Source of the DNA: an uncultured Acidilobus sp. JCHS
GTDB taxonomy: Archaea > Thermoproteota > Thermoprotei_A > Sulfolobales > Acidilobaceae
Direction: 5' to 3'
DNA: 64,000 nt
NCBI GenBank assembly: GCA_000495735.1
Contig: AYMD01000001.1
Span: forward strand, 292,377 to 356,376
A model generated the notes under the pieces. The model ran no database searches. It was not told where the DNA came from and saw only the letters and a program-made list of their open reading frames with translations. Below, in pieces: positions 1-57,235 of this stretch. The translations under genes were made by a program, and so were the position numbers. How positions within the stretch are numbered: position 1 is the stretch's first letter; every line of letters begins with the position of its first letter.

Positions 1-1746
1 TATTATGTTGCCCTTGGTCTTGTCCTGGTTGAGGAGGGAAGCGCTGAGCTCAGGGCTGAGGCCCCCCTCCTCGGCAAGGAGCGCGGCCGAGACCACCTTG
101 CCCGAGCTCGTGGCCACGGCCCTTATCGAGTAGTGGGGCGCATCGGCCATGAGGGCTAGGTCGTCAGGCTCGTTCCTGTAGTGGGCCTGAACGTATATGC
201 CGAATATCTGCCTGAGGAGCCCCTCGCCCCTCTCAGAGAACAGCTCCTCGGGCGCCGTGACGACGTAGCTTAGCCTCCCCTCCCTTATGTCAACGAGGTC
301 CTGCTCCTCAAGCCTGGCTGGCTCAGCGTCCAGGAGGAGGACGTCGAACAGCCACGCCTCTATTGGGTCGTCCTCTGAGTACCTTATGGGCTCCTCCATC
401 TCGTAGGTCCTCAGCTCGGTCCTAGGGTCCCTCCTGACCTCCCCGAGGAACCTGACGCTGAACCCCCTCCCGGCGCCTTCGTAGCCGTGTACGGTTGAGG
501 CCACCAGGATCCTCCTGTGGGCCCTCCAGATCCTGTGGAGGAGCGGCACGGGCAGGCCGCTGGCCTCGTCAATTACCACGAGGTCGGCCTCCTGCTCGGG
601 CACCTCAGACGGCCTGACGTACTTGACCCTGAAGCCCTTCCCCCTGAAGCCTATTACCTCCTCGCCCTTCCTCTCCACGCTGACCTCCATCTTCAGGGCT
701 TCGAAGGCCCTGCCGGCGAGCTCCATAAGGCTCTGGGTGTTCTCTAGGTCGGGCGAGGTGACTACCACCTTGACATTCCTTCTCCTGGGCGACCCGAGCC
801 AGGCGCTTATGAGGCCGACCATGGCTATGCCGGCGGCGCAGCTCTTCCCCCTGCCCCTGTCAGCCGTTATCACAAGGAGCTTCCTGCCGTCCTCCGCAGG
901 GGGCTCTATCAGCCACTCCGCGGCCCTTATGGCGTTGACCTGGTCCTGGGTCAGCGCTAGCCTGTAGACCTCCTCGGGGAACCTCGCGTCCTTCGGTACC
1001 TCGACCCTTCTCTCCTTGGGCGGGGAGGGCCTTATGGGCTCCCCGCTTATCACCTCGTCCTTGTCCAGGTCAACTATGAAGACGTTCCTGTTGTGCTCAA
1101 GCAGCTTCCTCTTGAACCAGGCTATGAAGACGTGCCTTGGCTCCGAGTAGCCGGGGACAAGCAGGTTCCTCTTGAACTCCGTCACCCTCGTGTCCCAGGG
1201 GTCCCAGGATGGGACCTGGAGGACTATGATGCCGCCCCCCTCAACTATGCCCGTCAGTATGCCAACCCTGTTGGGCTTGAGGTCGTCTACGAGGTCAAGA
1301 ACTAGGCCCTGGAACGTGGTGCCCAGGTACCTCCTTGCGTCCTCGGCCTTGGTTATGGTGAGCTTCGTTACGTTGCACCTCTCCTTGACCGACCTCTTGA
1401 CAAGCTCCTTCCTCAGCTGGGAGCCCTCGTAGCTCTCGTTGAATGCATAGAGGACCCTTATCTGTCTCTTCCCCTTGAGCTTCCTGACGAGGGACTCGTA
1501 GGTTATCAGCACGCTGGCCGTGGCCACGCCCACCTTCACAGGGTCGTCGCTGCTCAGCACAACCATGAGCCTCCTGTTAGAAGCTATGGAGGCCTTGACC
1601 GCGTGGCGAAGCAGCCTCCTCAGCCTCAGCAGGGACTCTGGCAGCCCCTTGCCCAGCTCGTATGAGGCCTCCTCAGCCTCCCTCCTTATCCTCTCCCTCT
1701 CCTCGGGGCTCCTGCGTACTCCTCCTGGGTCCACGGGCCCTAGCAC
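1..1746 (-). CDS. tmcA: tRNA(Met) cytidine acetyltransferase TmcA/Nat10 family, 3' end runs off the window
   Basis: Manual translation of the minus strand from GTG at 1746, in a frame consistent with the window edge; not in the ORF track because no stop lies in the window. It contains ILVASTVHGYEGAGRGFSVRF and YVQAHYRNEPDDLALMADAPH, characteristic TmcA helicase-domain and DUF699 motifs. Confidence 0.9.
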   Translation of the reverse strand, partial: MLGPVDPGGVRRSPEERERIRREAEEASYELGKGLPESLLRLRRLLRHAVKASIASNRRLMVVLSSDDPVKVGVATASVLITYESLVRKLKGKRQIRVLYAFNESYEGSQLRKELVKRSVKERCNVTKLTITKAEDARRYLGTTFQGLVLDLVDDLKPNRVGILTGIVEGGGIIVLQVPSWDPWDTRVTEFKRNLLVPGYSEPRHVFIAWFKRKLLEHNRNVFIVDLDKDEVISGEPIRPSPPKERRVEVPKDARFPEEVYRLALTQDQVNAIRAAEWLIEPPAEDGRKLLVITADRGRGKSCAAGIAMVGLISAWLGSPRRRNVKVVVTSPDLENTQSLMELAGRAFEALKMEVSVERKGEEVIGFRGKGFRVKYVRPSEVPEQEADLVVIDEASGLPVPLLHRIWRAHRRILVASTVHGYEGAGRGFSVRFLGEVRRDPRTELRTYEMEEPIRYSEDDPIEAWLFDVLLLDAEPARLEEQDLVDIREGRLSYVVTAPEELFSERGEGLLRQIFGIYVQAHYRNEPDDLALMADAPHYSIRAVATSSGKVVSAALLAEEGGLSPELSASLLNQDKTKGNII

Positions 1747-1857
1747 CCGTCAGCGGCTCTGCGCTAACAGGGATCAGGGAGGCCAAGGTAATAAACGGGT
1801 TCCAGGCAGGCCTGCGCCCCTTATTACCTGATTGGGCCAGACATCAAGGGGGCCCCA

Positions 1858-2178
1858 GTGGAGTCAAGGAGCGTAAGGAGGCCAGCGCTGTGCCCGGCCT
1901 GCGGCGCCCCTGGATTCTATAACTATGAGCTTAAGGGGCCCGTGGACAGGGAAGGCAACAGGCTCCTAGAGATATCATACTCGTTTAAGTGCGAGGTCTG
2001 CGGCTACGAGGACTCGGGAGGCCTGTACATACCGCTTGACGCAGTCTACAGGATAAGGCACCTCCTGGTGCCGGAGGCCCTGGCCCTTGTCGAGAGGGTC
2101 AAGGTAATCACTGATGTAGCTCCTCTGGGCGTTAAGGCCGGAGCTGAGGCCAGCGCCACAACGGGGGAAGGTCGTTAG
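1858..2178 (+). CDS. Zn-ribbon hypothetical protein
   Basis: CPACG...CEVCG cysteine pairs in a 106-aa ORF, divergent from tmcA. Confidence 0.7.
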   Translation: MESRSVRRPALCPACGAPGFYNYELKGPVDREGNRLLEISYSFKCEVCGYEDSGGLYIPLDAVYRIRHLLVPEALALVERVKVITDVAPLGVKAGAEASATTGEGR

Positions 2179-2263
2179 TTCTGCCCTTGCGTCACTAGCT
2201 GTTACTCTGCTCCTGAGCTCTGCAGGTAAGGGGTAATGGAGATGCCTCATGACCTTAAGGGCG

Positions 2264-3100
2264 CTAGAGGTACTTCTCACATACCCTCTTCATGACAAGG
2301 GCGTCCTGCTCAAGTATGGGGCTCTCGCTGATTATGACGCCGTCTATGCCGGTCTCAACGTAGGCCTTACACACAATCTCCCAGTCCGGCCCGAAGCCCT
2401 CCTCGGCCAGGGTGTGGTGCTCCCTCTCGCCCCCCTTGCCGTACTCTATCTTTGAAAAGTGGGTGTGCAGGGGCCTGACGGCCCACGAGCCAAGCTCCTT
2501 CTCGATCTTCTCAATGATCCTTATGACCTCGTCAACGCTGTTTATGGCCGCCCCCTCGGCCCTGGCGTGGAGGTGGGCCCAGTCAACTGCCGGCCTGACC
2601 CTGTCGTGGGACTGGCATATCTTTATGACCTCGTCCACGTCCCCCACCTGGGACTCCTTGCCGGTGGTCTCAGGGGCCAGCCAGGCCACCCTGAGGTCAA
2701 GGCCCTCGAAGACCCCCTTCAGGGCCTCTACGACTCTCCCCAGGGCCTCCTCCCTGCTCGCGTTCCCCTTTATGTAGCCTGGGTGGAAGACAACGGCGTA
2801 GGCGCCCATCCACTCTGATGCCTGGGCCGCCTCCCTGAGCCTCTCAACGCTCTTCGCTACGGTGTCCTCCTCCGGGCTGGCCAGGTTTATGAAGTAGGGG
2901 GCGTGCATGCTCAGGACAACGTCGTTCTGCTGGGCTACCTCCCTTATCCTCTCGGCCTTCTCCCTGGTGACCCTGACGCCCCTGACGGCCTCGTACTCAA
3001 GGGCGTCGAGGCCCATCTGCCTCAGCAGGGGCGGGACCTCCTCGTAATCGCCGCTGAAGTTCGTCGGCTTCCCCGCTGGCCCGAACCTCAGCCTCGCCAA
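2264..3100 (-). CDS. nfo: Endonuclease IV family AP endonuclease (TIM barrel)
   Basis: SMHAPYFINLAS, VVFHPG, PETTGK, VDWAHLHA, HTHFSKIE, EREHH and IISESP metal-binding motifs of EndoIV. Confidence 0.85.
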   Translation of the reverse strand: MARLRFGPAGKPTNFSGDYEEVPPLLRQMGLDALEYEAVRGVRVTREKAERIREVAQQNDVVLSMHAPYFINLASPEEDTVAKSVERLREAAQASEWMGAYAVVFHPGYIKGNASREEALGRVVEALKGVFEGLDLRVAWLAPETTGKESQVGDVDEVIKICQSHDRVRPAVDWAHLHARAEGAAINSVDEVIRIIEKIEKELGSWAVRPLHTHFSKIEYGKGGEREHHTLAEEGFGPDWEIVCKAYVETGIDGVIISESPILEQDALVMKRVCEKYL

Positions 3101-9313: not shown

Positions 9314-10350
9314 ACTATGGCAACCTCTATCTCTGTCTGCGTCAGGCCAAGCCCTATCCCGAGGAGCGCGGCCCTCAGGTTGTCAACATCTATCGTGAGC
9401 AGCAGGAGCGCCGCAGCTATCAGCGCCGGCGAGTAGGGGTAGCCCTCAAAGGCTGCCATAGCTGACCTCATGGCCGCGACCCTAGCGGACCTCCTGACCG
9501 AGCTCATGACGTCCCTAAGACTCCTGCCCTCCACCTTCACACGCCTCACCATTTTCGACAACTCAGTGACGAGAGAGGCTATGTCCTCGCTCAGGTTCCT
9601 CTCATAGGCCTCCGCCAGCGAGGCCCACCGAACGCCGCAGAGGGGCCTCTGGGGCAGCGCCCTGGCGAAGGTCCTCGGGTTGACCCTGAGCGCCCAGGCC
9701 TGGAAGGCCGCCAGCGAGGCCCACCCCTCGACCAGGGGGCAGAGGACCTTCTCGGCGTCAGTCCTGTCCTGACCGCCTATGGGCTCAAGGGCCCTCTGGA
9801 TCGCTGCGAGCCTGGCCGAGAGCGAGTACCAGGTGAAGGCCTCGGGGAACTTGATATCAGAGAACGCCTCAAGGGCCCCAGCCATAGTCTTCCTCAGGGG
9901 GCCGCTCTTCAGGAGGTCGGGCAGCCTCGTCAATGAGGGTGAGGCCTCCAGCTCGGGCATCACGTCCCTGATTGAGGACCTGCTCCACTCAAGGGAGGGT
10001 AGCCAGGCGGGGGGACGCAGGCCCTCCGCGAGGGCCCTGGCCAGCGTCATGAGGTCCTCTACCTCCTTCACCTCAGCGAAGGCCCTCACGAGCTCCTTGG
10101 CCTCGTCGGGCGCGAGGCCCTCTAGCTCATCTATTACGCTGAAGTACTGCTGGGCCAGCCTCCTCTCGACGAGCCTCAGCTCCTTGGCCTCGGCGATCCC
10201 TGAGTACATGGTGTCCCTGAGCGAGGCCAGGGCCTCAGCCAGGGGAGGGGAGAGGTCCTTTACCCTTGGGCCCAGGAGGCCCGCCTTCAGGAGCCTGAGC
10301 CTTGGGACGATCTGAGCGTAGGCAGACGGGGACCCCAAGGCCTCAGCCAC
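9310..10350 (-). CDS. A/V-type ATP synthase subunit C (AhaC/NtpC)-like
   Basis: 346 aa, helical; N-terminal YAQIVPRLRLLKAGLL resembles the YAYxxARIRAMKxxLL start of subunit C; C-terminal DVDNLR; adjacent to a subunit H-like ORF. Confidence 0.65.
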   Translation of the reverse strand: MAEALGSPSAYAQIVPRLRLLKAGLLGPRVKDLSPPLAEALASLRDTMYSGIAEAKELRLVERRLAQQYFSVIDELEGLAPDEAKELVRAFAEVKEVEDLMTLARALAEGLRPPAWLPSLEWSRSSIRDVMPELEASPSLTRLPDLLKSGPLRKTMAGALEAFSDIKFPEAFTWYSLSARLAAIQRALEPIGGQDRTDAEKVLCPLVEGWASLAAFQAWALRVNPRTFARALPQRPLCGVRWASLAEAYERNLSEDIASLVTELSKMVRRVKVEGRSLRDVMSSVRRSARVAAMRSAMAAFEGYPYSPALIAAALLLLTIDVDNLRAALLGIGLGLTQTEIEVAIV

Positions 10351-10681
10351 CCGACGCTATCCTCTTCACGGCCTCAATGACCGCCTGCACGGCCCTCTCG
10401 AAGTTCTTGTCGGCCCTCTCCTTCAGGTCCCTCTCGACCTCCTCAAGCCTCCTGGCCAGGTCCGCCTCTATCCTTGAGGCCTCAGCCTTGTAGAGCTCCT
10501 CGAGCTGCCTTGAGGCCTCAGAGGCTATCACGTCGGCCTCCTGGGAGAGCTGGGCCGCGATTGAGTCTGCCCTCTTAACCAGCTCAGCCTGGACTGACTT
10601 CACGTAGGACTCGGCCTCCCTTATCGACCTCTCAAGCTCTATGACGGCCTCTAGGAGCTTATTCACGGCCTCCTTTGACAT
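10343..10681 (-). CDS. A-type ATP synthase subunit H/G-like coiled-coil stalk protein
   Basis: 112-aa E/K/R/A-rich coiled coil ending FERAVQAVIEAV, overlapping the start of the subunit C-like gene. Confidence 0.55.
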   Translation of the reverse strand: MSKEAVNKLLEAVIELERSIREAESYVKSVQAELVKRADSIAAQLSQEADVIASEASRQLEELYKAEASRIEADLARRLEEVERDLKERADKNFERAVQAVIEAVKRIASGG

Positions 10682-10794
10682 ACCTCTCCTCTGGCCCTTG
10701 ACCAGGGCCCCTTTAAATCCCTTTCAAGAACCGTCGCAAGTACCCTCGCATAGTTCTAAAATCCTCGCCAGGCACTACCCTAGGGCGTCTGGTA

Positions 10795-11439
10795 GTGGAG
10801 CGCGTGCGGGTCATAGGGGACGAGGTGCCCTACGCCAGGTGGCTCCTGGCGAGGCTCCGCGACAGGTCAACGTCACCTGAGGAGTTCAGGAGGTACATGA
10901 GGGAGGCCGGCAGGCTGCTGGCCATCTACTCCTCCCGCGAGCTTGAGTGGGTAAAGGTGTCTGTAACCACCCCGCTCGGGGCCCAGGCCGAGGAGCTCGA
11001 GCTCGCCTCGCCTCCCCTCGTAGTAGGCGTCCTCGGGGCGGCCCTCCCGCTTGTTGAGGGCTACGCCGAGGTCTTCCCGTCCTCCAGGATAGGCCTCGTG
11101 GCGGCCAGGCGGCTGGAGAGCGAGGGAGAGGTCAGGGTGGAGCTCTACTACAGGAGGCTGCCGAGGGTCCACACGGGCTCGGCGGTCGTCCTAGACCCTA
11201 TGCTCGCTACGGGCAAGACCATTGACAGGGTCATCGAGGAGGTCAAGTCCATAGGGGCCGGGAAGGTGATAGTCGGCTCAGTGATAGCCTCAAGGCCGGG
11301 CCTGAGCTACATAGGCAGGAGGCACCCGGACGTCATGATTTACTCGCTCGCCGTCGACCCTGACCTGGACAGCCGCTTCTTCATAGTCCCAGGCCTTGGG
11401 GACGCGGGCGACAGGTCGCTGGGCGTCAGCCCCGACTAG
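10795..11439 (+). CDS. upp: Uracil phosphoribosyltransferase
   Basis: LRDRST, VLDPMLATG (PRPP-binding) and FIVPGLGDAGDR. Confidence 0.95.
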   Translation: MERVRVIGDEVPYARWLLARLRDRSTSPEEFRRYMREAGRLLAIYSSRELEWVKVSVTTPLGAQAEELELASPPLVVGVLGAALPLVEGYAEVFPSSRIGLVAARRLESEGEVRVELYYRRLPRVHTGSAVVLDPMLATGKTIDRVIEEVKSIGAGKVIVGSVIASRPGLSYIGRRHPDVMIYSLAVDPDLDSRFFIVPGLGDAGDRSLGVSPD

Positions 11440-45452: not shown

Positions 45453-46020
45453 CTAGGCTGGGAGCACCGCCCTCTTGAACGACCAGTTAAGGACTATGGC
45501 GGCCCCCAGGTAGAGGGCGTCGAGCCCGGTTATGAGGCCTATCCAGCCCCCTGCCTTTATTATGGCTGTGCTGCTCGCTAGGAAGCCGGCCGCCAGGACC
45601 CAGAAGGTTATCGTGAGCAGGACCAGGACGCTCATGAGCACCCTGGCCTTCAGAGCGTTGGCGCCCACCGTGTAGATCAGGGTCAGTATGCCCCAGAATA
45701 TGAACCAGGTCCCTATCTCAGAGTCTCCCCACGAGAAAGTGCTGCCGTTCCAGGCCTGCAGGACGAAGGCCAGGCCGAGGCCTATCCAGAAGAGGCCGTA
45801 GGTGCTGAAGGCCGTGCCCCCAAGCAGGTTGCCCCTCTTGAAGTCCATCCAGCCGGCGAAGACCTGGGCCATGCCTCCCCAGAAGAAGGCGTAGGCTAAC
45901 GTCATGCCGGCCGTCGGTATTAAGCCGGCGTTGTGCAGGCTCAGGACTATCGTTGTCAGGGCGAAGCCCCAGAGCCCGAGGGCGCTGGGGTCTGCGAACG
46001 GCTCCTTCTCGCTCGCTCAA
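45453..46020 (-). CDS. satP: SatP/GPR1/FUN34/YaaH (AceTr) acetate channel
   Basis: The frame upstream of the listed ATG 45905 encodes FADPSALGLWGFALTTIVLSLHNAG then FFWGGMAQ. The SD-preceded TTG at 46020 is 1 nt out of frame. Confidence 0.85.
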
Positions 46021-46069
46021 ACCCACCTCCTACACACTTATACATAAATATCAAAAAAGATATTAAAGC

Positions 46070-48052
46070 TTAACTTCCGCCCATCGACCTCTTGAACTCC
46101 TCCCAGGCCTTCAAGAGCTCCTCGACGGCCGTCGGGTCCTCAAGGGCCGTTGTGTCGCCGAGGGGCCTGCCCTCCATTATGTCCTTGAGGAGCCTCCTCA
46201 TTATCTTCCCGCTCCTCGTCTTGGGCAGCTTCCTCACGAAGAGCACTGTCTTAGGCGTCGCTATCGAGCCTATCTGGGTCCTTATCAGCTCTATCAGCTC
46301 CTTCCTGAGCTGCTCGCTCGGCTGGTAGCCTGCCTTGAGCACTACAGCAGCCACGGGCACCTCGCCCTTCACCGGGTCAGGGGCGCCTATGACTGCGGCC
46401 TCGGCCACGGCCGGGTGCTTTATCAGGACGTCCTCCATCTCGGTAGTCCCTATCCTGTGGCCGGCCACCTTGAGGACCTCGTCAGCCCTGCCGAGGAGCC
46501 AGAAGTAGCCCTCCTCGTCCTTGACGGCGTAGTCGCCCGCGTAGAAGTAGCCTGGGAACCTGCTCCAGTAAGTCTTTACGTACCTCTCGGGGTCGCCCCA
46601 GATGCCCAACATCATGCCAGGCCACGGCCTCTTGATTATCAGGTAGCCCCTGACGCCTGGAGGCGTCGGGTTACCGTTCTCGTCTACTACGTCGGCCACT
46701 ATTCCGGGCAGCGGGAACGTGGCCGAGCCGGGCTTGAGGGTGACGAGCGATATGCCTGGGGCGGGCGATATCATGGCTGCCCCGGTCTCTGTCATCCACC
46801 ACGTGTCTACTATTGGGCACCTCCTCTTGCCGACTACCTCGAAGTACCACCTCCATACGTCGGGGTTTATGGGCTCGCCCACGGTGCCCAGTATCCTCAG
46901 CGTTGACAGGTCGTGCTTCGTGACCCACTCGTCGCCGTACTGCCTGAGCGTCCTCAGGGCGGTGGGGCTCGTGTAGAATATCGTGACGCCGTACTTCTCG
47001 ACTATCTGCCACGGCCTGTCGGGCTGCGGGTAGTCTATGGCGCCCTCGTACATGACCTCCGTGGCGCCGTTCATCAGAGGGCCGTAGACTATGTAGGTGT
47101 GACCCGTTACCCACCCAACGTCGGCCATGGTCCAGTGGACGTCCTCAGGCCTTATGTCCCAGTTCCACTTGAACACGTGGTAGACGTAGACCATGTAGCC
47201 GCCTACGCTCTGCATTATCCCCTTCGGCTTGCCCGTGGTGCCGCTGGTGTAGAGTATGAAGAGCACGTCATCGCCCTTCCTCGGCACCGGCTTGACGTAG
47301 GTGGTGTCGGGGTACTTGGAGGTCAGCTCATGGTACCAGACGTCCCTTCCCTCGACCCAGTTGATCGGGTTCCCGAGCCTCCTGACCACGATGACCTTCT
47401 CTACCTTGGCCCCCTGCTTCTCAGCCAGGGCGACGCCCTCGTCGGCGTTCTTCTTGAGCTCAACTACCTTGCCCCTCCTCCAGTAGCCGTCAGCTGTTAT
47501 CAGGACCCTCGACTTGGCGTCGACAATCCTGTCGGCGAGGGCCGAGGGGCTGAAGCCTGAGAAGACGACGCTGTGTATGCCCCCAACCCTTGTCACGGCG
47601 AGCATAGATATGGGCAGCTCCGGTATCATGGGCATGTATATCGTGACTGTGTCGCCCGGCTTCACGCCCAGGTCCTGGAGGGCCTTGGCGAGCTTGTTGA
47701 CCTCCCTGAAGAGGTCCCTGTAGCTCAGGACCCTGCTGGTCCCGTCCTCGCCCTCCCAGTAGTAGGCCACCTTGTTGGCCACGTGGGTGCCCATCCAGCG
47801 GTCGAGGGCGTTCAGGTTGATGTTGGTCTCCCCTCCCACGAACCACCTGTAGAAGGGCGGGTTAGAGTCATCAAGGACCTTGTCCCAAGTCCTATACCAC
47901 ACCAGCTCCCTGGCCCTCTCGTCCCAGAACTTTATGGGGTCCTCAACCGAGGCGCGCCAGAAGTCAAGGTACTTGTTGTGGTGAGGGAAGTACTTCTCGC
48001 CGTAGGGCAAGGGCTCTATCCTCTGGGCCTCCGGAGAAGACATGTATGTCAC
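46070..48052 (-). CDS. acs: Acetyl-CoA synthetase (AMP-forming)
   Basis: YTSGTTGKPKG, DTWWMTETG, YFYAGDYA, GHRIGTTE, LPKTRSGKIMRR. Confidence 0.95.
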   Translation of the reverse strand: MTYMSSPEAQRIEPLPYGEKYFPHHNKYLDFWRASVEDPIKFWDERARELVWYRTWDKVLDDSNPPFYRWFVGGETNINLNALDRWMGTHVANKVAYYWEGEDGTSRVLSYRDLFREVNKLAKALQDLGVKPGDTVTIYMPMIPELPISMLAVTRVGGIHSVVFSGFSPSALADRIVDAKSRVLITADGYWRRGKVVELKKNADEGVALAEKQGAKVEKVIVVRRLGNPINWVEGRDVWYHELTSKYPDTTYVKPVPRKGDDVLFILYTSGTTGKPKGIMQSVGGYMVYVYHVFKWNWDIRPEDVHWTMADVGWVTGHTYIVYGPLMNGATEVMYEGAIDYPQPDRPWQIVEKYGVTIFYTSPTALRTLRQYGDEWVTKHDLSTLRILGTVGEPINPDVWRWYFEVVGKRRCPIVDTWWMTETGAAMISPAPGISLVTLKPGSATFPLPGIVADVVDENGNPTPPGVRGYLIIKRPWPGMMLGIWGDPERYVKTYWSRFPGYFYAGDYAVKDEEGYFWLLGRADEVLKVAGHRIGTTEMEDVLIKHPAVAEAAVIGAPDPVKGEVPVAAVVLKAGYQPSEQLRKELIELIRTQIGSIATPKTVLFVRKLPKTRSGKIMRRLLKDIMEGRPLGDTTALEDPTAVEELLKAWEEFKRSMGGS

Positions 48053-48102
48053 CCCGTGTTCCGAACTTTATACATATTAGCCCGCTATTTAAGGACTCCA
48101 TT

Positions 48103-48130
48103 AGTGGGATTTATTATGCTCTGTCCCACT
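48103..48130. promoter_or_regulatory. Inverted repeat in the AT-rich divergent acs/mutS promoter region
   Basis: AGTGGGA (48103-09) and TCCCACT (48124-30), flanked by several TATA-like elements. Confidence 0.4.
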
Positions 48131-48242
48131 TATATCCTAGTTAAATAAGTTTATATAATGTTTAGTTTAGAATGGTTTTTGACAGCCCTTAGCCTTCACA
48201 TTATGTATAGAGAGCGCACCTTTTTAGATCCTAGATTTAATA

Positions 48243-49751
48243 GTGGCGCGGGTTACGCCAATTGGGGGTGCAAGGGTCTCCCTACTTGGCTCAAGGGGGT
48301 CGAAGGCCAGCGAGAGGATTCTCTGGGACCTGAGGATCGAGGAGTTAGTTGATGATATCCTGGGTAAGGACAAGGACCGCTTCCTAGCTGATGTCTTCAA
48401 GGAGCCGCTCACCGACAGGGATGCTATCGCCTTCAGGCAGAGGGTGTTCGAGGACCTTATGGACGAGAGGGCATACGCCGTGGCAAGGGGCTTCGTAGAG
48501 GGGGTCAAAGAGGTCAGCAGGCTGCTGAGCCTGGAGGCAGACGCGTACGAGGAGTTCAGGTACGGCCTCCACCTCGACGCCGCCCTGGCCTATGTAAACA
48601 CGCTGGAGACCACGTTAAGCTCGCTGCGAGGCCTGAACGTAAGGTCTGAGGGCCTCGTCCATTTCATCAGTTACCTCGAGGACCTGGTTCGGAGCGAGGG
48701 GTTCCAGGCCTTAAAGGGGCTAGCGTACAAGGCAAAGGCCGCCAGGGACAGGATAAAGGCCAGGGTAAGCATAAGCGGGGACAGGGTAAGGGTCACAGAG
48801 GACGGCGGCGAGGACCTGTCGTCAAGGGTTGAGCGGCTTTTCTCGAGGTTCAAGTGGCAACAGGTCCGCCAGATCAGGTTCACGAGCAGCTACGGGCAGA
48901 TGACCCACGTTCACGCCATGATATTAAGGGGCATATACAATATCTTCAAGGAGGAGTTCGACGTAATGAGGAAGCTGAAGGAGGAGTTCCCCAACATAAT
49001 AGACGAGGGCGTCAAGTCCTTCGCTGAGGAGCTGGAGTTCTATCTCAGGTACATCGAATACATGAATGCCACCAAGTCCAAGGGGTACAAATTCTCAATA
49101 CCACAGTTCACCGAGGACGGGTCAATTCACGTCAAGGGCTTCTACAACCTGCTGTTAGCCAGGAAGGGCACGGCGGTGGCTAATGACATACGCACGTCAG
49201 GCCAAAGGAGGGTGTTCGTGATAACTGGCATGAACAGCAGCGGGAAGACGACATTTGCCATCACCTTTGGCCAGCTGGCCTTCCTCGCATCGATAGGTGT
49301 GCCCGTCCCAGCGGAGGAGGCCAGGATGCCCCTTTTCTCTAAGATATTGACTGCCTTCCCTATTGAAGAGGGCAGGCTGGAGGGCTTAAGCAGGCTTGAG
49401 GAGGACGTGGTCAGGGCCCTAGACATATTGAGGGCGGCTGACGACAGGACGCTGATCATAGTTAACGAGCTCTTCTCAGCCACAACGTCAGATGAGGGCT
49501 TTGAGCTCGCGAGCCGCTTCATTAAGGAGGTGATGAGCAGAGGCTCGTACCTCATTTACGTCACGTTCATCACGAGGCTGGCCTCGCTCGAAGGCGTGAT
49601 AAGCCTCGTGTCGCAGGTGAAGGACGGGAGGCCTACCTTCAAGATCGTGGAGGGAGGCCCTCCGTCAAGCTACATGGCCGTTCAGATAGCCGCAAGGCAT
49701 CAGCTGCTCTACGATGACGTAAGGGGCCGCGTCGGAGGGCGACCCCCATGA
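48243..49751 (+). CDS. MutS-family ATPase domain protein, MutS4A-like (no mismatch-binding domain)
   Basis: ITGMNSSGKTTF Walker A, GVPVPAEEA, IIVNELFSATT Walker B variant, YVTF; about 500 aa. Confidence 0.85.
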   Translation: MARVTPIGGARVSLLGSRGSKASERILWDLRIEELVDDILGKDKDRFLADVFKEPLTDRDAIAFRQRVFEDLMDERAYAVARGFVEGVKEVSRLLSLEADAYEEFRYGLHLDAALAYVNTLETTLSSLRGLNVRSEGLVHFISYLEDLVRSEGFQALKGLAYKAKAARDRIKARVSISGDRVRVTEDGGEDLSSRVERLFSRFKWQQVRQIRFTSSYGQMTHVHAMILRGIYNIFKEEFDVMRKLKEEFPNIIDEGVKSFAEELEFYLRYIEYMNATKSKGYKFSIPQFTEDGSIHVKGFYNLLLARKGTAVANDIRTSGQRRVFVITGMNSSGKTTFAITFGQLAFLASIGVPVPAEEARMPLFSKILTAFPIEEGRLEGLSRLEEDVVRALDILRAADDRTLIIVNELFSATTSDEGFELASRFIKEVMSRGSYLIYVTFITRLASLEGVISLVSQVKDGRPTFKIVEGGPPSSYMAVQIAARHQLLYDDVRGRVGGRPP

Positions 49752-51229
49752 TACAGTTTGACCTTCTCAGGGCAGGCGGCGCTGAGGTGAAGGGCCGGGA
49801 AGACGTGGTAAGGGACCTGGAGCTTGACAAGATCATAAACGCCGTGGCCCAGAAGGACGAGCTGATCATGGACGTGTGGACCCGCATGCTCCTGATGCCG
49901 GAAACCGACGTGGAGTCCATAAGGTACAGGCAGGAGGCAGTCAGGGACGCTATCCGCAACAGAAACGTCATAGTTGGGCTATATAACTTCACTAGGGACG
50001 TCATAACTAGGACCAGAAGGGCAACCTTCCTCGTGACCTATGATAACCCGGAGCTAGTGGTCTTTGAGACGGCCGCTGGCATGAGGATCATGATAGATGC
50101 CTTCAAGGACCTGAAGGGCATCCTCGGCAGGGCAAGCTTCTCGTCTCAGGCCTTCCGGGGCCTGGTGGACACGCTAATGGAGAACGCGGACGACGGCTTT
50201 ATAGCCTCGGCGAAGGAGCTACTGAGCATCTTTGACATCAGGAACGACACGATGGAGTTCTCAGTAAGGCTCGGCGCTCAAAATACGTTGGCTGACCCTA
50301 CGCTTTTGGTCCCTAAAAAGGAAGGCGGCATAATAAAGAAATTATTTAATAAGGAAAGGGCTTACGAGTTCAGGCTGGACCCTCACGACGAAAGGGGCGC
50401 GGAGATACTGGGGGACATCAGGAAGTGGGTCCTCGCCAACATAGCGCCAACCATGCTGAACGCCTACGAGAGCCTGTTGCGGTTCTACACAACCCTGAGC
50501 GAGCAGCTGGCCTTCTTCGTGGGGGCTATAAACCTTCACGACCTCTTCCAGAGGCTTGAGCTGCCCTTAGCGTACCCCGAGTTCTCTGAGGGCACGCTGT
50601 CGTTCAGGGACCTCCACTGCCTCTCCCTCGCGATATCGCTTAACAGGAGGCCTGTCCCGAACTCTCTGGAGACCCGTAACGTTAGCGCTTTCATAATAAC
50701 TGGCGTCAACAGGGGCGGCAAGACGACCTTCATGAAGTCGATAGGCCAGGCTATACTGCTCGCGAGGGCAGGGGTCTTCGTGCCTGCCAGCAGGCTGGTG
50801 TTGCCCTCGGCTGGGGCCGTTCACACGCACTTCCAGAGGGAGGAGGAGAGGACAATGTCCTATGGGAAGTTCGAGGAGGAGGTTGTAAGGTTCAGTAGGA
50901 TTGTTGACTCGCTGAGGCCCGGGGACTACGTGCTGATGAACGAGAGCTTCTCAACAACTAACCAGGTTGAGGCCTCGGAGGTCGCCAGGCAGGTCGTGCA
51001 GGCCCTGGTTGACAGCAGGGTGACGGTCTTCTACGTCACGTTCCTGCAGGACTTCATATACCGCTTCATTAGGGATAACGGGGGCAGAGCTATCCTGCTG
51101 GTGCCTGAGAGGCTGAAGGACGGAACCAGGACCTTCAGGTTACTTCAGGGCTCCGTTCAGCCGGGGTACGCGCTGGAGATCTGGGATAAACTGGTGAGAA
51201 GCGGCAGCAGCGGTGGACGGAGCCCCTGA
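49748..51229 (+). CDS. MutS-family ATPase domain protein, MutS4B-like
   Basis: ITGVNRGGKTTF, GVFVPA, THFQREE..GKFEEEV, LMNESFSTTN, YVTF; ATGA overlap with the partner. Confidence 0.85.
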   Translation: MIQFDLLRAGGAEVKGREDVVRDLELDKIINAVAQKDELIMDVWTRMLLMPETDVESIRYRQEAVRDAIRNRNVIVGLYNFTRDVITRTRRATFLVTYDNPELVVFETAAGMRIMIDAFKDLKGILGRASFSSQAFRGLVDTLMENADDGFIASAKELLSIFDIRNDTMEFSVRLGAQNTLADPTLLVPKKEGGIIKKLFNKERAYEFRLDPHDERGAEILGDIRKWVLANIAPTMLNAYESLLRFYTTLSEQLAFFVGAINLHDLFQRLELPLAYPEFSEGTLSFRDLHCLSLAISLNRRPVPNSLETRNVSAFIITGVNRGGKTTFMKSIGQAILLARAGVFVPASRLVLPSAGAVHTHFQREEERTMSYGKFEEEVVRFSRIVDSLRPGDYVLMNESFSTTNQVEASEVARQVVQALVDSRVTVFYVTFLQDFIYRFIRDNGGRAILLVPERLKDGTRTFRLLQGSVQPGYALEIWDKLVRSGSSGGRSP

Positions 51230-51435
51230 GCCTGTTTACCGATCCCATGAACAGCGAGCGTCAGAGGCCCCCAAGGCCTTAGCTGACCTTCTCCCTGCCC
51301 TAAAGGGCTAGGCTTGCCTTTCGCTTTTGTCAAACAGGGAAGCAGCCCGCCGCTGGGCGTGAGTGAGCCAGGACAGGTTAGCGACTGTGAATTCCGCGAA
51401 GGGGTTCAACGTAACGTCTTCGCGCTTAGAAGGCG

Positions 51436-52431
51436 TCAGGCCTTAAAGCTCGCTGAGCTGTAGGCCTCGTCTATACATGAGACCTTGTAGACTTCCTCGG
51501 CGACGCCGTGGGCGTAGCCCTCAAGCTCCTTCCCCCTCATGCCTGATGCCAGGAGGGTCATGAAGACCTCCTCCATGTACTCCCTCAGGCTGGCGTTTGA
51601 GACGGCTGGGTAGTCAGAGCCGTAGATGACCCTGCCCTTCGGGAAGTCCCTCAACACCATGGGCACTAGCTGAGGGGGCAGGGCGGAGGTGTCAACGAGG
51701 ACGTTGTCGAAGCTCCTGGCCAGGGCCAGGGTCTCCTCGAAGAAGACCCCTGGGGCTATCGCGCTGTAGCCCCCCGCGTGGGCTATGATCACCGGCGTGT
51801 CCCTGTGGGTCCTCAGGTGGACCTCAAGCCTTGACGGGTCGCCGTACTTGCAGAACCTGGGCAGCTCCCATATGCCAGGGTCGCAGCCGCTGTGGACTAT
51901 GACAGGGAGCCCCCTGGACTCGGCCACCTCCAGGACGACGCCCACCTGGGGGGAGTCGAGGTGTTGGAGGAACAGCGTAGAGATCACCTTGAAGCCCCTG
52001 AAACCTCTTGAGGCGGCGGCCTCGAGGACAGAGGCCAGCTCTTCGGGAGCGAGGGAGAGGTTCGCCGGGAAGACCGGGGCGAAGTTGCTCAGGGCGGACA
52101 TGTGCTGGTGCCTGGCGAAGGTGCAGAAGTCCTCTGCCAGCCTGACGGCGTTAACGTAGAGGACCTCGGGCTGGAGGTACTCCATTACGTCAGATGCGTA
52201 CTTCTCTATGATTGGCCTGGCCCTCTCGAACTCCCTGTTAACGTCGTCTATGGTCACCTTTGAGAGGACGTCCTTGAAGGGCGGTATCCCTATTATGACG
52301 GCCCCTCTGACGCCGGCGTCCACGAGACCCCTTATGTAGTCGTTGACCTCCTTAGTTGTCCTAAGGAGGGGCATGTGGACGTGGCCGTCTATGACGCAGC
52401 TTACCGGGACGTCAGCCCTCAGCGCCCGCAC
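51436..52431 (-). CDS. Amidohydrolase_2 family metal-dependent hydrolase
   Basis: IDGHVH, IVHSG, IAHAGG, VDTS, IYGSDYP. Confidence 0.85.
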   Translation of the reverse strand: MRALRADVPVSCVIDGHVHMPLLRTTKEVNDYIRGLVDAGVRGAVIIGIPPFKDVLSKVTIDDVNREFERARPIIEKYASDVMEYLQPEVLYVNAVRLAEDFCTFARHQHMSALSNFAPVFPANLSLAPEELASVLEAAASRGFRGFKVISTLFLQHLDSPQVGVVLEVAESRGLPVIVHSGCDPGIWELPRFCKYGDPSRLEVHLRTHRDTPVIIAHAGGYSAIAPGVFFEETLALARSFDNVLVDTSALPPQLVPMVLRDFPKGRVIYGSDYPAVSNASLREYMEEVFMTLLASGMRGKELEGYAHGVAEEVYKVSCIDEAYSSASFKA

Positions 52432-56655: not shown

Positions 56656-56719
56656 GGCCGATGAAGAGACCATCAGTGGTTAGACCTTGTGGGGTGAAGA
56701 CGGGTTGCCCCTCGAGGCC
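56656..56719 (+). ncRNA. Candidate box C/D sRNA with degenerate D boxes
   Basis: GGCC ends; C ATGAAGA 56661-67; D' TAGA 56681-84; C' GTGAAGA 56694-700; D TCGA 56712-15; CTTAAG box about 25 nt upstream. Confidence 0.4.
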
Positions 56720-57235
56720 CTCCCCGCTGGCCTAGGCCTACAGGGCGCACAGGTGCACCGACGTCCTCTCCTTACGCCTCTGCCTGCCGTCCCCCTCTTC
56801 TTGCCTGGCCATGCACTAAGCCTGAGGGCGCGCCTGAGGTACGAGAGGGACAAGACGCTGGAGGAGGCCGTGAGGTGCGTCGCGAGAAGCCTCGGCCTCA
56901 ACTACATAGACCCCGAGAGGCTCTACGTAGTAAGGAGCTACGGCTCCAGGTCAAGGGCCACAGCAAGGATATACATGATGCCCTCTGCCTGGAGGTTCGC
57001 CCTCAACATGGGGCCCGTCTACCTCATAGAGTTCATATCAGAGAGGTTTGACAGGCTGACGCCAATGGGGAAGGCTGAGGTCATAGTACACGAGCTCCTC
57101 CACATACTCCCTGCGTTCAGCGGCGGCCTGAGGCCCCACGGGAGGCTCGTCAACGACGGGCTCGCCAGGAGGCTGACCTCGAGAGTCGACGAGGACTGCC
57201 TGAGGCTTTTAGGCGGCGACGAGGAGAGCAGGTAG
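56687..57235 (+). CDS. Putative metallopeptidase (HExxH); true start probably near 56822-56834
   Basis: ATARIY, YLIEFISERF, VIVHELLHI, GGLRPH; the first 45 or so codons look non-coding. Confidence 0.75.
   Translation: MWGEDGLPLEALPAGLGLQGAQVHRRPLLTPLPAVPLFLPGHALSLRARLRYERDKTLEEAVRCVARSLGLNYIDPERLYVVRSYGSRSRATARIYMMPSAWRFALNMGPVYLIEFISERFDRLTPMGKAEVIVHELLHILPAFSGGLRPHGRLVNDGLARRLTSRVDEDCLRLLGGDEESR

Follow-up and report, generated by a model that had tools for sequence, protein, structure and literature searches.

The window examined here is a 64,000-nt stretch of the genome of the uncultured archaeon Acidilobus sp. JCHS (GCA_000495735.1, contig AYMD01000001.1, positions 292,377-356,376, forward strand), and our subject is a pair of overlapping plus-strand genes within it, A (48243-49751) and B (49748-51229), which encode MutS-family ATPases resembling the MutS4A and MutS4B subunits. 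We consider it probable that the pair forms a heterodimeric clamp ATPase of the fluoride-stress regulon, which in this lineage resides on an accessory cassette and has been freed of riboswitch control. Across bacteria and archaea the A-then-B operon belongs to the core of the fluoride-riboswitch regulon, a family-wide association missed by an earlier note made on this DNA from its sequence. In the Acidilobus lineage the two genes make up most of a 3.2-kb accessory cassette inserted between acs and an amidohydrolase gene; its riboswitch has been lost, the genes are transcribed together in situ, though modestly, and both are under purifying selection. In what follows, G numbers denote genomes of the order (G000 is the window's own, 1.48 Mb and 99.4% complete), L numbers denote fetched loci and X numbers hot-spring sequencing runs.

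The MutS4A/B operon and the fluoride riboswitch

Eighty pair loci were fetched from GTDB species genomes in two sets of 40, and Infernal searches of these genomes for the fluoride riboswitch, RF01734, were mapped back onto the loci. An aptamer lies on the same strand and at most 350 nt upstream of A at 17 of 40 loci in one set and 19 of 40 in the other (36/80 overall), these aptamers being placed 54-344 nt upstream of the tblastn start of A, and about 49 of the 80 loci have one within 2 kb upstream of A. At the level of whole genomes, RF01734 is carried by 38 of 40 pair genomes at E<=0.001 and by 31 of 40 at E<=1e-6, compared with 4 of 14 controls. The neighbours of the 80 loci were also clustered and the 15 most recurrent clusters read. 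Although no neighbour family is present at more than 20% of the loci, those that recur are CrcB (15 loci), enolase (15), Usp (12), a His_Phos_1 phosphatase (10), DUF190 with or without CBS (10 and 9), subunits of Hyf/Hyc-type hydrogenases (up to 16), an MFS transporter (15) and a dynamin-family GTPase (14), and this recurrent neighbourhood is the classic fluoride-riboswitch regulon. The earlier note had suggested looking around MutS4 pairs for acs, transporter or defence genes; acs is not among the 15 clusters read, and the context is made up of fluoride genes and riboswitches, not of defence islands. That 'mutS' is among the genes behind crcB motifs was already recorded by Weinberg et al. 2010 (PMC2864571), and our literature search found no report, including any follow-up to that study, on what MutS4 proteins do.

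Two features of these neighbourhoods deserve mention in their own right. The dynamin-family GTPase (about 590 aa; L086 12972-14741 and 13 other loci) is often encoded directly 3' of B, behind the same fluoride riboswitch. Some loci from bacteria and Methanospirillum (L087, L077 and L084) are 'fluoride islands' with 5-10 RF01734 aptamers within 20 kb, on both strands, and one Rhizomicrobium metagenome-assembled genome (MAG) holds 15 aptamers genome-wide.

The recurrence of enolase and of a phosphoglycerate-mutase-type phosphatase among the neighbours would also suit an ATP-dependent reactivase or chaperone for fluoride-poisoned metalloenzymes (e.g., enolase), by analogy with the MutS-like KamC. 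KamC (NF052383, 508 positions; the NCBIfam lysine 5,6-aminomutase reactivase) likewise belongs to the MutS-family ATPases, lacks a mismatch domain at a length of about 500 aa and is named for a non-DNA role, and a mutS gene is present in lysine-fermentation clusters. However, A and B give partial matches only, of 70 bits (E 2e-19) and 57 bits (E 2e-15), respectively, against a cut-off of 300. They are not members, and these scores are no better than the equally partial matches to MutS1 (TIGR01070, 80 bits against a cut-off of 642) and MutS2 (TIGR01069, 75 bits for A and 46 for B against a cut-off of 400). No kam genes lie near the window pair, no direct evidence points to a protein client, and a search of the KamC literature returned nothing relevant; a reactivase therefore seems to us very improbable.

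The family behind this association is very large. A full HMMER scan at E<=1e-30 yields 608 representatives at 50% identity, nearly all of them 480-560 aa long and matching over their full length, and a natural A-B fusion protein of 1026 aa (P0042) exists. The 80 loci include Chloroflexota, Actinomycetota, Thermodesulfobacteriota, Spirochaetota, Bacillota, Pseudomonadota and Atribacterota, as well as Methanospirillum, one Woesearchaeote and one Thaumarchaeote, and nearly every one of these loci, which span many phyla, has an A-type gene with a B-type gene directly behind it, most often overlapping by 4 nt. The first genes score 210-256 bits with A and 67-108 with B, two to three times higher with A, while the second genes show the reverse (about 70 pairs), and separate A and B alignments have distinct invariant residues. 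A heterodimer of A and B is supported by the conserved A-then-B order with its 4-nt overlap and by the natural fusion.

These traits recall the proteins named MutS4A and MutS4B by Lin, Nei & Ma 2007 (Nucleic Acids Res 35:7591; PMC2190696), who left their function unassigned. In that account, the two are adjacent paralogues in which the A stop overlaps the B start, each with a MutS ATPase domain and without domains I, II and Smr, and their patchy distribution over distant bacteria and some archaea led to a suspicion of horizontal transfer (PMC2190696). The members named there are from Thermoplasma volcanium, Ferroplasma, T. tengcongensis and Mycobacterium, the archaeal ones being Thermoplasma and Ferroplasma (PMC2190696). 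The window pair shares the overlap, the domain content and the grouping into A and B lineages, and it is on this published description, rather than on the named sequences, that we assign it to MutS4A/B; the earlier note had called it MutS4-like. Its best non-crenarchaeal match, a 509-aa 'MutS-related protein' (E 1.4e-70), is from the Thermoplasmataceae, and it was in this archaeal group that MutS4 was first reported.

The details of the window pair bear this out, and with it much of the earlier description of the two genes. A encodes 502 aa from a GTG start and B 493 aa from an ATG start, and the two are joined by the ATGA stop/start overlap noted earlier, at 49748-49751 (plus strand), an arrangement indicative of translational coupling, with a Shine-Dalgarno-like GGAGGG (49735-49740) situated 9-13 nt before the ATG of B. 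The proteins are paralogues, with 30% identity across the C-terminal 258 aa that make up the ATPase half. MutS_V is the sole Pfam match in both (E 5e-15 for A, 1e-13 for B), beside a sub-threshold MutS_III match in A, and MutS_I, MutS_II and Smr (PF01713) were not found in either protein. No second MutS_V gene is present in the genome beyond A and B, and a search of the same genome with the MutL middle domain found none, extending to the whole genome the observation that no mutL is nearby. The pair thus lacks the canonical MutS1 features of domain I, domain II and a MutL partner, and the earlier view that it is not a repair enzyme holds in so far as canonical mismatch repair is meant. The lower G+C content reported for the two genes is likewise real but modest (GC 0.57 compared with 0.59-0.64 in most neighbours; third-position GC, GC3, 0.77 compared with 0.81-0.86).

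Elsewhere in the family, the number and integrity of the pairs vary. Three MutS4 A/B pairs lie within 13 kb in an Acidimicrobiales MAG (L071 1-12978) and two within about 13 kb in an actinomycete MAG (L052 2-13116), and so the pair has undergone local paralogous expansion. On a metagenome contig (L004 9482-10930), B is split by inversion of an internal segment of about 0.9 kb, its pieces lying at 9482-9730 (plus), 10640-9735 (minus) and 10631-10930 (plus); this is either a true disrupting inversion or a misassembly.

Crenarchaeal orthologues and loss of the switch

Within the order, the pair is present in 10 of 121 genomes (7 of 52 genera), nine of which have both genes; in G026 the sole match is cut off by the contig end. 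In a tree of the A proteins, the crenarchaeal sequences form one strongly supported, long-stemmed clade, while other archaea are scattered among bacteria. The window pair thus differs from the MutS4 proteins of Lin et al. in belonging to a long-branched, monophyletic crenarchaeal clade that is absent from their report.

Outside the genus, the window pair's closest orthologues, four members of this clade, all carry a fluoride riboswitch directly upstream of the pair: G061 (67% identity to A; RF01734 at 34.8 bits), L034 (65%; 46.4 bits), L035 (62%; 58.8 bits) and G064 (53%; 49.8 bits). In each case the riboswitch lies 8-28 nt before the start codon, and the leaders of G061 and G064 read as an aptamer, then GAGGTGA, then the start codon. 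The most revealing of these is G061, a 99% complete genome in which the single RF01734 match (L027, G061:C11, 7919-7980) stands directly before the MutS4 pair. Neither CrcB nor CLC was found in this genome, and the pair alone lies behind the switch, so that it is the only recognisable riboswitch-controlled fluoride response there. With no other target for the riboswitch, and no CrcB or CLC in the genome, this argues that the pair itself protects against fluoride and does not simply accompany exporters.

The aptamer that marks the regulon is found in orthologues at 53-67% identity, whereas the window has neither a 5' aptamer nor co-located fluoride genes (crcB, CLC-F, enolase or DUF190). RF01734 is absent at the pair in all three carriers of the genus Acidilobus (G000, G019 and G095), and the best match in the window's own genome, at 15.8 bits, is located elsewhere. 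The segment before A (48160-48242, plus strand) is, from its sequence and an Rfam scan, an A/T-rich leader or promoter region of the cassette without a fluoride riboswitch. A degenerate riboswitch in this leader or in the N-terminal extension was considered and rejected, as comparison by eye with the G061 and G064 aptamers and an Rfam scan at E<=10 revealed nothing.

The distribution of exporters in the order adds little to this. CrcB was not found in the window's own genome, and over the order it is present in 15 of 121 genomes and the pair in 10 of 121, with an overlap of 0; we set this apparent mutual exclusion aside, as chance alone gives about 0.27. CLC proteins, of any type and not resolved to CLC-F, are present in 78 of 121 genomes and are uninformative as fluoride exporters, apart from G061 having none.

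The Acidilobus pair would probably perform the same fluoride-stress job as its riboswitch-controlled orthologues and would be expressed without an RNA switch, a plausible arrangement for an acidic hot spring with HF entering cells continuously. MutS4 has been named since 2007 and mutS has been known behind crcB motifs since 2010; the Acidilobus case adds that the fluoride link reaches the Crenarchaeota, and this known but unexplained family includes crenarchaeal members without a riboswitch.

The accessory cassette and its surroundings

The cassette (48160-51398) comprises the leader, A, B and a tail, and is polymorphic in its presence. On one side lies ACS1, an acetyl-CoA synthetase gene (46070-48052, minus strand), and on the other an Amidohydro_2 gene (51436-52431, minus strand), both identified by Pfam and both outside the system. 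In the congeners G041, G071 and G080, the locus reads SBP-DiphSyn2-GNAT-SatP-ACS1 followed by amidohydrolase-TrmB, with nothing between. The same empty site is seen in the DNA of run X1, where a contig runs from 48159 straight into 51399, leaving out 3239 bp, at a depth of 1420; the pair itself has a depth of 51-85 and the flanks 1100-3000. Given the depth of this junction relative to that of the pair, the dominant Acidilobus-like haplotype in the X1 spring is without the cassette. The reverse arrangement is found in run X2, in which a haplotype lacks ACS1 (joint 45720 to 48025, depth 13) but has the pair. The locus is therefore a hotspot at which Acidilobus strains living side by side differ in gene content.

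The earlier note had read the link to acs as pointing to a metabolite-responsive switch, which we considered as one that responds to a metabolite or acyl-CoA and is coupled to the divergent acs. ACS1 and the pair do lie head-to-head, both in the window and in G095, and a second acs (ACS2) follows 3 kb downstream, but this synteny is confined to the genus. Congeners without the pair keep the acs locus, whereas G019, whose proteins are 98% identical, and the X2 haplotype keep the pair without acs beside it. In G095, an extra ORF (about 155 aa, in about 0.9 kb of additional sequence) separates acs from A. At some 95 other loci acs was not seen, which for 80 of them means that no AMP-binding gene figures in the 15 most recurrent neighbour clusters. 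The acs and pair histories are uncoupled, given that between G000 and G095 acs has a dS of 0.14 and A and B one of 0.63-0.73, a five-fold difference, and acs RNA in run X7 is about 100-fold more abundant than that of the pair. The acs link is thus incidental, and the switch has next to no probability left. ACS1 is itself of some interest, as it shares 96% amino acid identity with its G095 counterpart (L026 5016-6980) at a dS of 0.14 while the flanking genes stand at 0.63-0.73, which suggests recent recombination or transfer of acs alone.

Presence/absence polymorphism and a patchy distribution are also what one would look for in an anti-virus defence module on an accessory island, the other alternative raised at the outset, and a phage-type metallopeptidase gene lies 5.5 kb away. 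PADLOC, however, gave no meaningful match: mad8 (E 1e-4 to 8e-3) and PtuA (E 0.04) are matched over the P-loop region only, and the pair has no nuclease, methylase or other effector coupled to it. Across the family, moreover, the surroundings are fluoride genes and riboswitches rather than defence islands, and defence, with hardly any likelihood remaining, is effectively excluded along with the acs-linked switch. Of the original proposal of a horizontally acquired heterodimeric unit, what finds support is that the pair is accessory and patchily distributed (10 of 121 genomes, polymorphism within the genus, lower GC3) and that it would form a heterodimer (gene order, overlap and fusion); the function drawn from acs does not survive.

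The genes are not silent, a possibility that had been entertained. In the RNA of run X7, a contig (48509-49795) crosses the A/B junction, and in that of X15 another (48996-51230) ends at the stop codon of B. The dN/dS ratio is about 0.16-0.21 for both genes, relative to the near-identical G019 and the 79%-identical G095. With RNA contigs covering the pair and dN/dS at this level, the riboswitch-less pair is both expressed and constrained, and loss of the switch is compatible with continued selection and transcription of the genes. A hairpin with a T-tract after B (51303-51331, plus strand), in the cassette tail, is a possible but weak candidate for the transcript end, as a consensus scan performed no better than chance.

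We considered whether A is a pseudogene in G095 and rejected this, since the 'in-frame TGA' proved to be A's own stop codon. In the same genome (L026 7960-8040), no ATG, GTG or TTG is present in the A frame between an upstream TAA and the conserved TPIGG...LLGSRGSK N terminus, and A may there use a non-canonical start (ATT or CTG) or be poorly translated.

The clean mobility of the 3.2-kb cassette means that strains with and without the pair coexist in one spring, and such carriers and non-carriers amount to a natural experiment on fitness in relation to fluoride and pH. It also follows that a misleading 'acetate metabolism' association can be removed from the annotation. The remaining neighbours of the pair include satP, GNAT, a TrmB-like gene and rubrerythrin, and further along the window a 182-aa ORF (56687-57235) with a Pfam match to a 'putative phage metallopeptidase' (E 1.5e-21) is located between ACS2 and a gene for a KaiC-like ATPase.

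A clamp core with an altered nucleotide site

AlphaFold2 single-chain models of A and B were built from alignments of 60 and 50 sequences, respectively, and are confident (pLDDT 88, pTM 0.85-0.86). In Foldseek, nearly the whole of each chain aligns to MutS, MutS-beta and MutS2, with E values of about 4e-18 (A) and 2e-15 (B), the coverage being that of MutS domains III, IV and V only, and the best length-normalised match is the core of T. thermophilus MutS2 (7vuf, TM 0.6). PDB matches by sequence, in comparison, extend over the ATPase half only. In view of this whole-length fold alignment to the MutS/MutS2 core, the helical N-terminal half noted earlier is predicted to be the MutS lever module with a reduced clamp of one beta-hairpin, followed by the ABC ATPase and C-terminal helices.

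The ATPase motifs depart from those of the canonical MutS1 and MutS2 in three motifs. A has the Walker A GMNSSGKTT, the Walker B IIVNE (Asn408), the signature SRL in place of STF and Phe442 in the H-loop, and B has the Walker A GVNRGGKTT, the Walker B VLMNE (Asn398), the signature GKF and Phe432 in the H-loop; the Walker B asparagines (VNE and MNE) are those that the earlier note had picked out. Across the alignments, the canonical Asp-Glu of Walker B is Asn-Glu in 60/60 A and 47/50 B sequences, and the canonical Ser-Thr-Phe signature is replaced by (Gly/Ser)-(Lys/Arg)-Leu in A, with a basic residue in 60/60, and by Gly-(Lys/Arg)-(Leu/Phe) in B (50/50). The canonical H-loop His is Phe in 59/60 A sequences; in B it is retained in all 44 non-crenarchaeal sequences, whereas all six crenarchaeal ones have Phe and differ in this from B proteins elsewhere.

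The Walker B change has a counterpart in E. coli MutS D693N (Lebbink et al. 2010, PMC2857095; PDB 3k0s), in which the Mg2+ pocket is empty, ATP binding is Mg-independent and about 15-fold weaker, and basal ATPase activity is retained although its stimulation by mismatches is lost (PMC2857095). There, the substitution is an engineered loss-of-function allele, whereas in MutS4 the asparagine is fixed, is the wild-type residue and goes together with an altered signature and H-loop. By analogy with the empty Mg pocket of D693N, it is a reasonable inference, but no more than that, that the MutS4 nucleotide sites are Mg-poor and compensated by a Lys/Arg acting in trans.

We tentatively propose the following mechanism for the pair as part of the fluoride-stress regulon. 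On binding ATP, the A/B dimer might clamp shut around nucleic acid or nucleoprotein as its substrate, a step we put forward with little certainty. With similarly little certainty, the changes in the Walker B (Asn), signature (basic) and H-loop (Phe) could create a Mg-poor site that Mg- and Al-fluoride complexes would find hard to trap. This would matter for a protein made while Mg/Al-fluoride species poison ordinary P-loop NTPases. A bolder extension, which we rate as unlikely, is that MutS4A/B constitutes an exporter-independent arm of fluoride tolerance: an ATP-gated clamp whose sites have been rebuilt for nucleotide with little or no Mg2+, and which Mg/Al-fluoride transition-state mimics could not lock, would allow a transaction on nucleic acid or the ribosome to continue, or would clear poisoned complexes, as fluoride builds up. 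The Acidilobus cassette would then have become riboswitch-free in a setting of continuous HF entry and without the CrcB family, and the G061 pair would be the only fluoride-riboswitch target of a genome in which CrcB and CLC were not detected.

Several points weigh against assigning the window pair to fluoride stress. We found no experiment linking any MutS4 pair to fluoride tolerance. The window is without RF01734, a scan of all of it at gathering thresholds returning two tRNAs only and a scan of 47800-48500 at E<=10 returning no aptamer, and genes for CrcB, enolase and DUF190 were not found near the pair. RF01734 was also undetected at seven more distant crenarchaeal loci, and function could therefore have drifted in those lineages. 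The fluoride-proof asparagine site is a pure inference from a mutant of a different MutS, and the clamp-equivalent region is only mildly basic, so that nucleic-acid binding is not evident from the sequence. Finally, expression and indels were called from Logan contig depths, which are word depths given by the assembler for mixed populations.

The riboswitch-less crenarchaeal loci would also fit a modulator of DNA recombination or repair, unrelated to fluoride in this lineage, that clamps branched or mismatched intermediates in the manner of MutS2, MutS5 or MSH4-MSH5; in riboswitch-less Acidilobus this would be its sole role. Such a modulator would be in keeping with the MutS/MutS2 core fold over the whole chain, with the pair's position divergent from herA-mre11-rad50-nurA in a Vulcanisaeta MAG (L005 1348-7856), and with a NurA/HerA-like pair two genes from the G061 pair (L027 2695-6020). 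It also finds a parallel in the only wet-lab report, in which the M. yongonense MutS4 operon, placed in M. smegmatis, raised the recovery of homeologous recombinants (75% compared with 31% of sequenced colonies). However, this is a single experiment, small and heterologous, the HerA/NurA linkage is not conserved at other loci, and the 15 most recurrent neighbour clusters of the 80 loci include no repair genes. A role on DNA is, moreover, compatible with fluoride control, and the two readings differ mainly on whether fluoride still matters here; we hold a purely recombinational role to be doubtful.

The fold matches raise one further alternative. MutS2 is the best match in both sequence and fold and has the same size and the same lever, clamp and ATPase core without a mismatch-binding domain (7vuf/7vuk, 7qv3), and the top matches include B. 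subtilis MutS2 on collided disomes (7qv3). The pair might thus be a ribosome-associated ATPase like MutS2/RqcU, whose clamp would recognise stalled or collided ribosomes (e.g., with fluoride-poisoned translational GTPases) and help to split them. In size and domain content, A and B do correspond to a MutS2 core minus its C-terminal modules. It is, however, the KOW and Smr modules of MutS2 that mediate ribosome contact and cleavage, and these are precisely what the pair lacks. MutS2 is, furthermore, a homodimer with the C-terminal Smr nuclease and KOW, as opposed to a two-gene heterotypic pair, and has the Asp-Glu Walker B, STF signature and H-loop His that A and B are without. No genes for ribosomal proteins or rescue factors are among the 15 most recurrent neighbour clusters, and the ribosomal protein genes near L035 lie on the opposite strand and are not conserved. 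We consider a ribosomal role improbable, and a clamp ATPase of the fluoride-stress regulon remains our preferred reading of the pair.

The three B sequences that retain the Walker B aspartate (L003, L005 and L036) are all crenarchaeal and without a riboswitch. They belong to a riboswitch-less crenarchaeal subclade that includes Vulcanisaeta, whereas the riboswitch-bearing subclade and the window carry the asparagine. The aspartate and the absence of the riboswitch may reflect a correlated change of regulation and active site.

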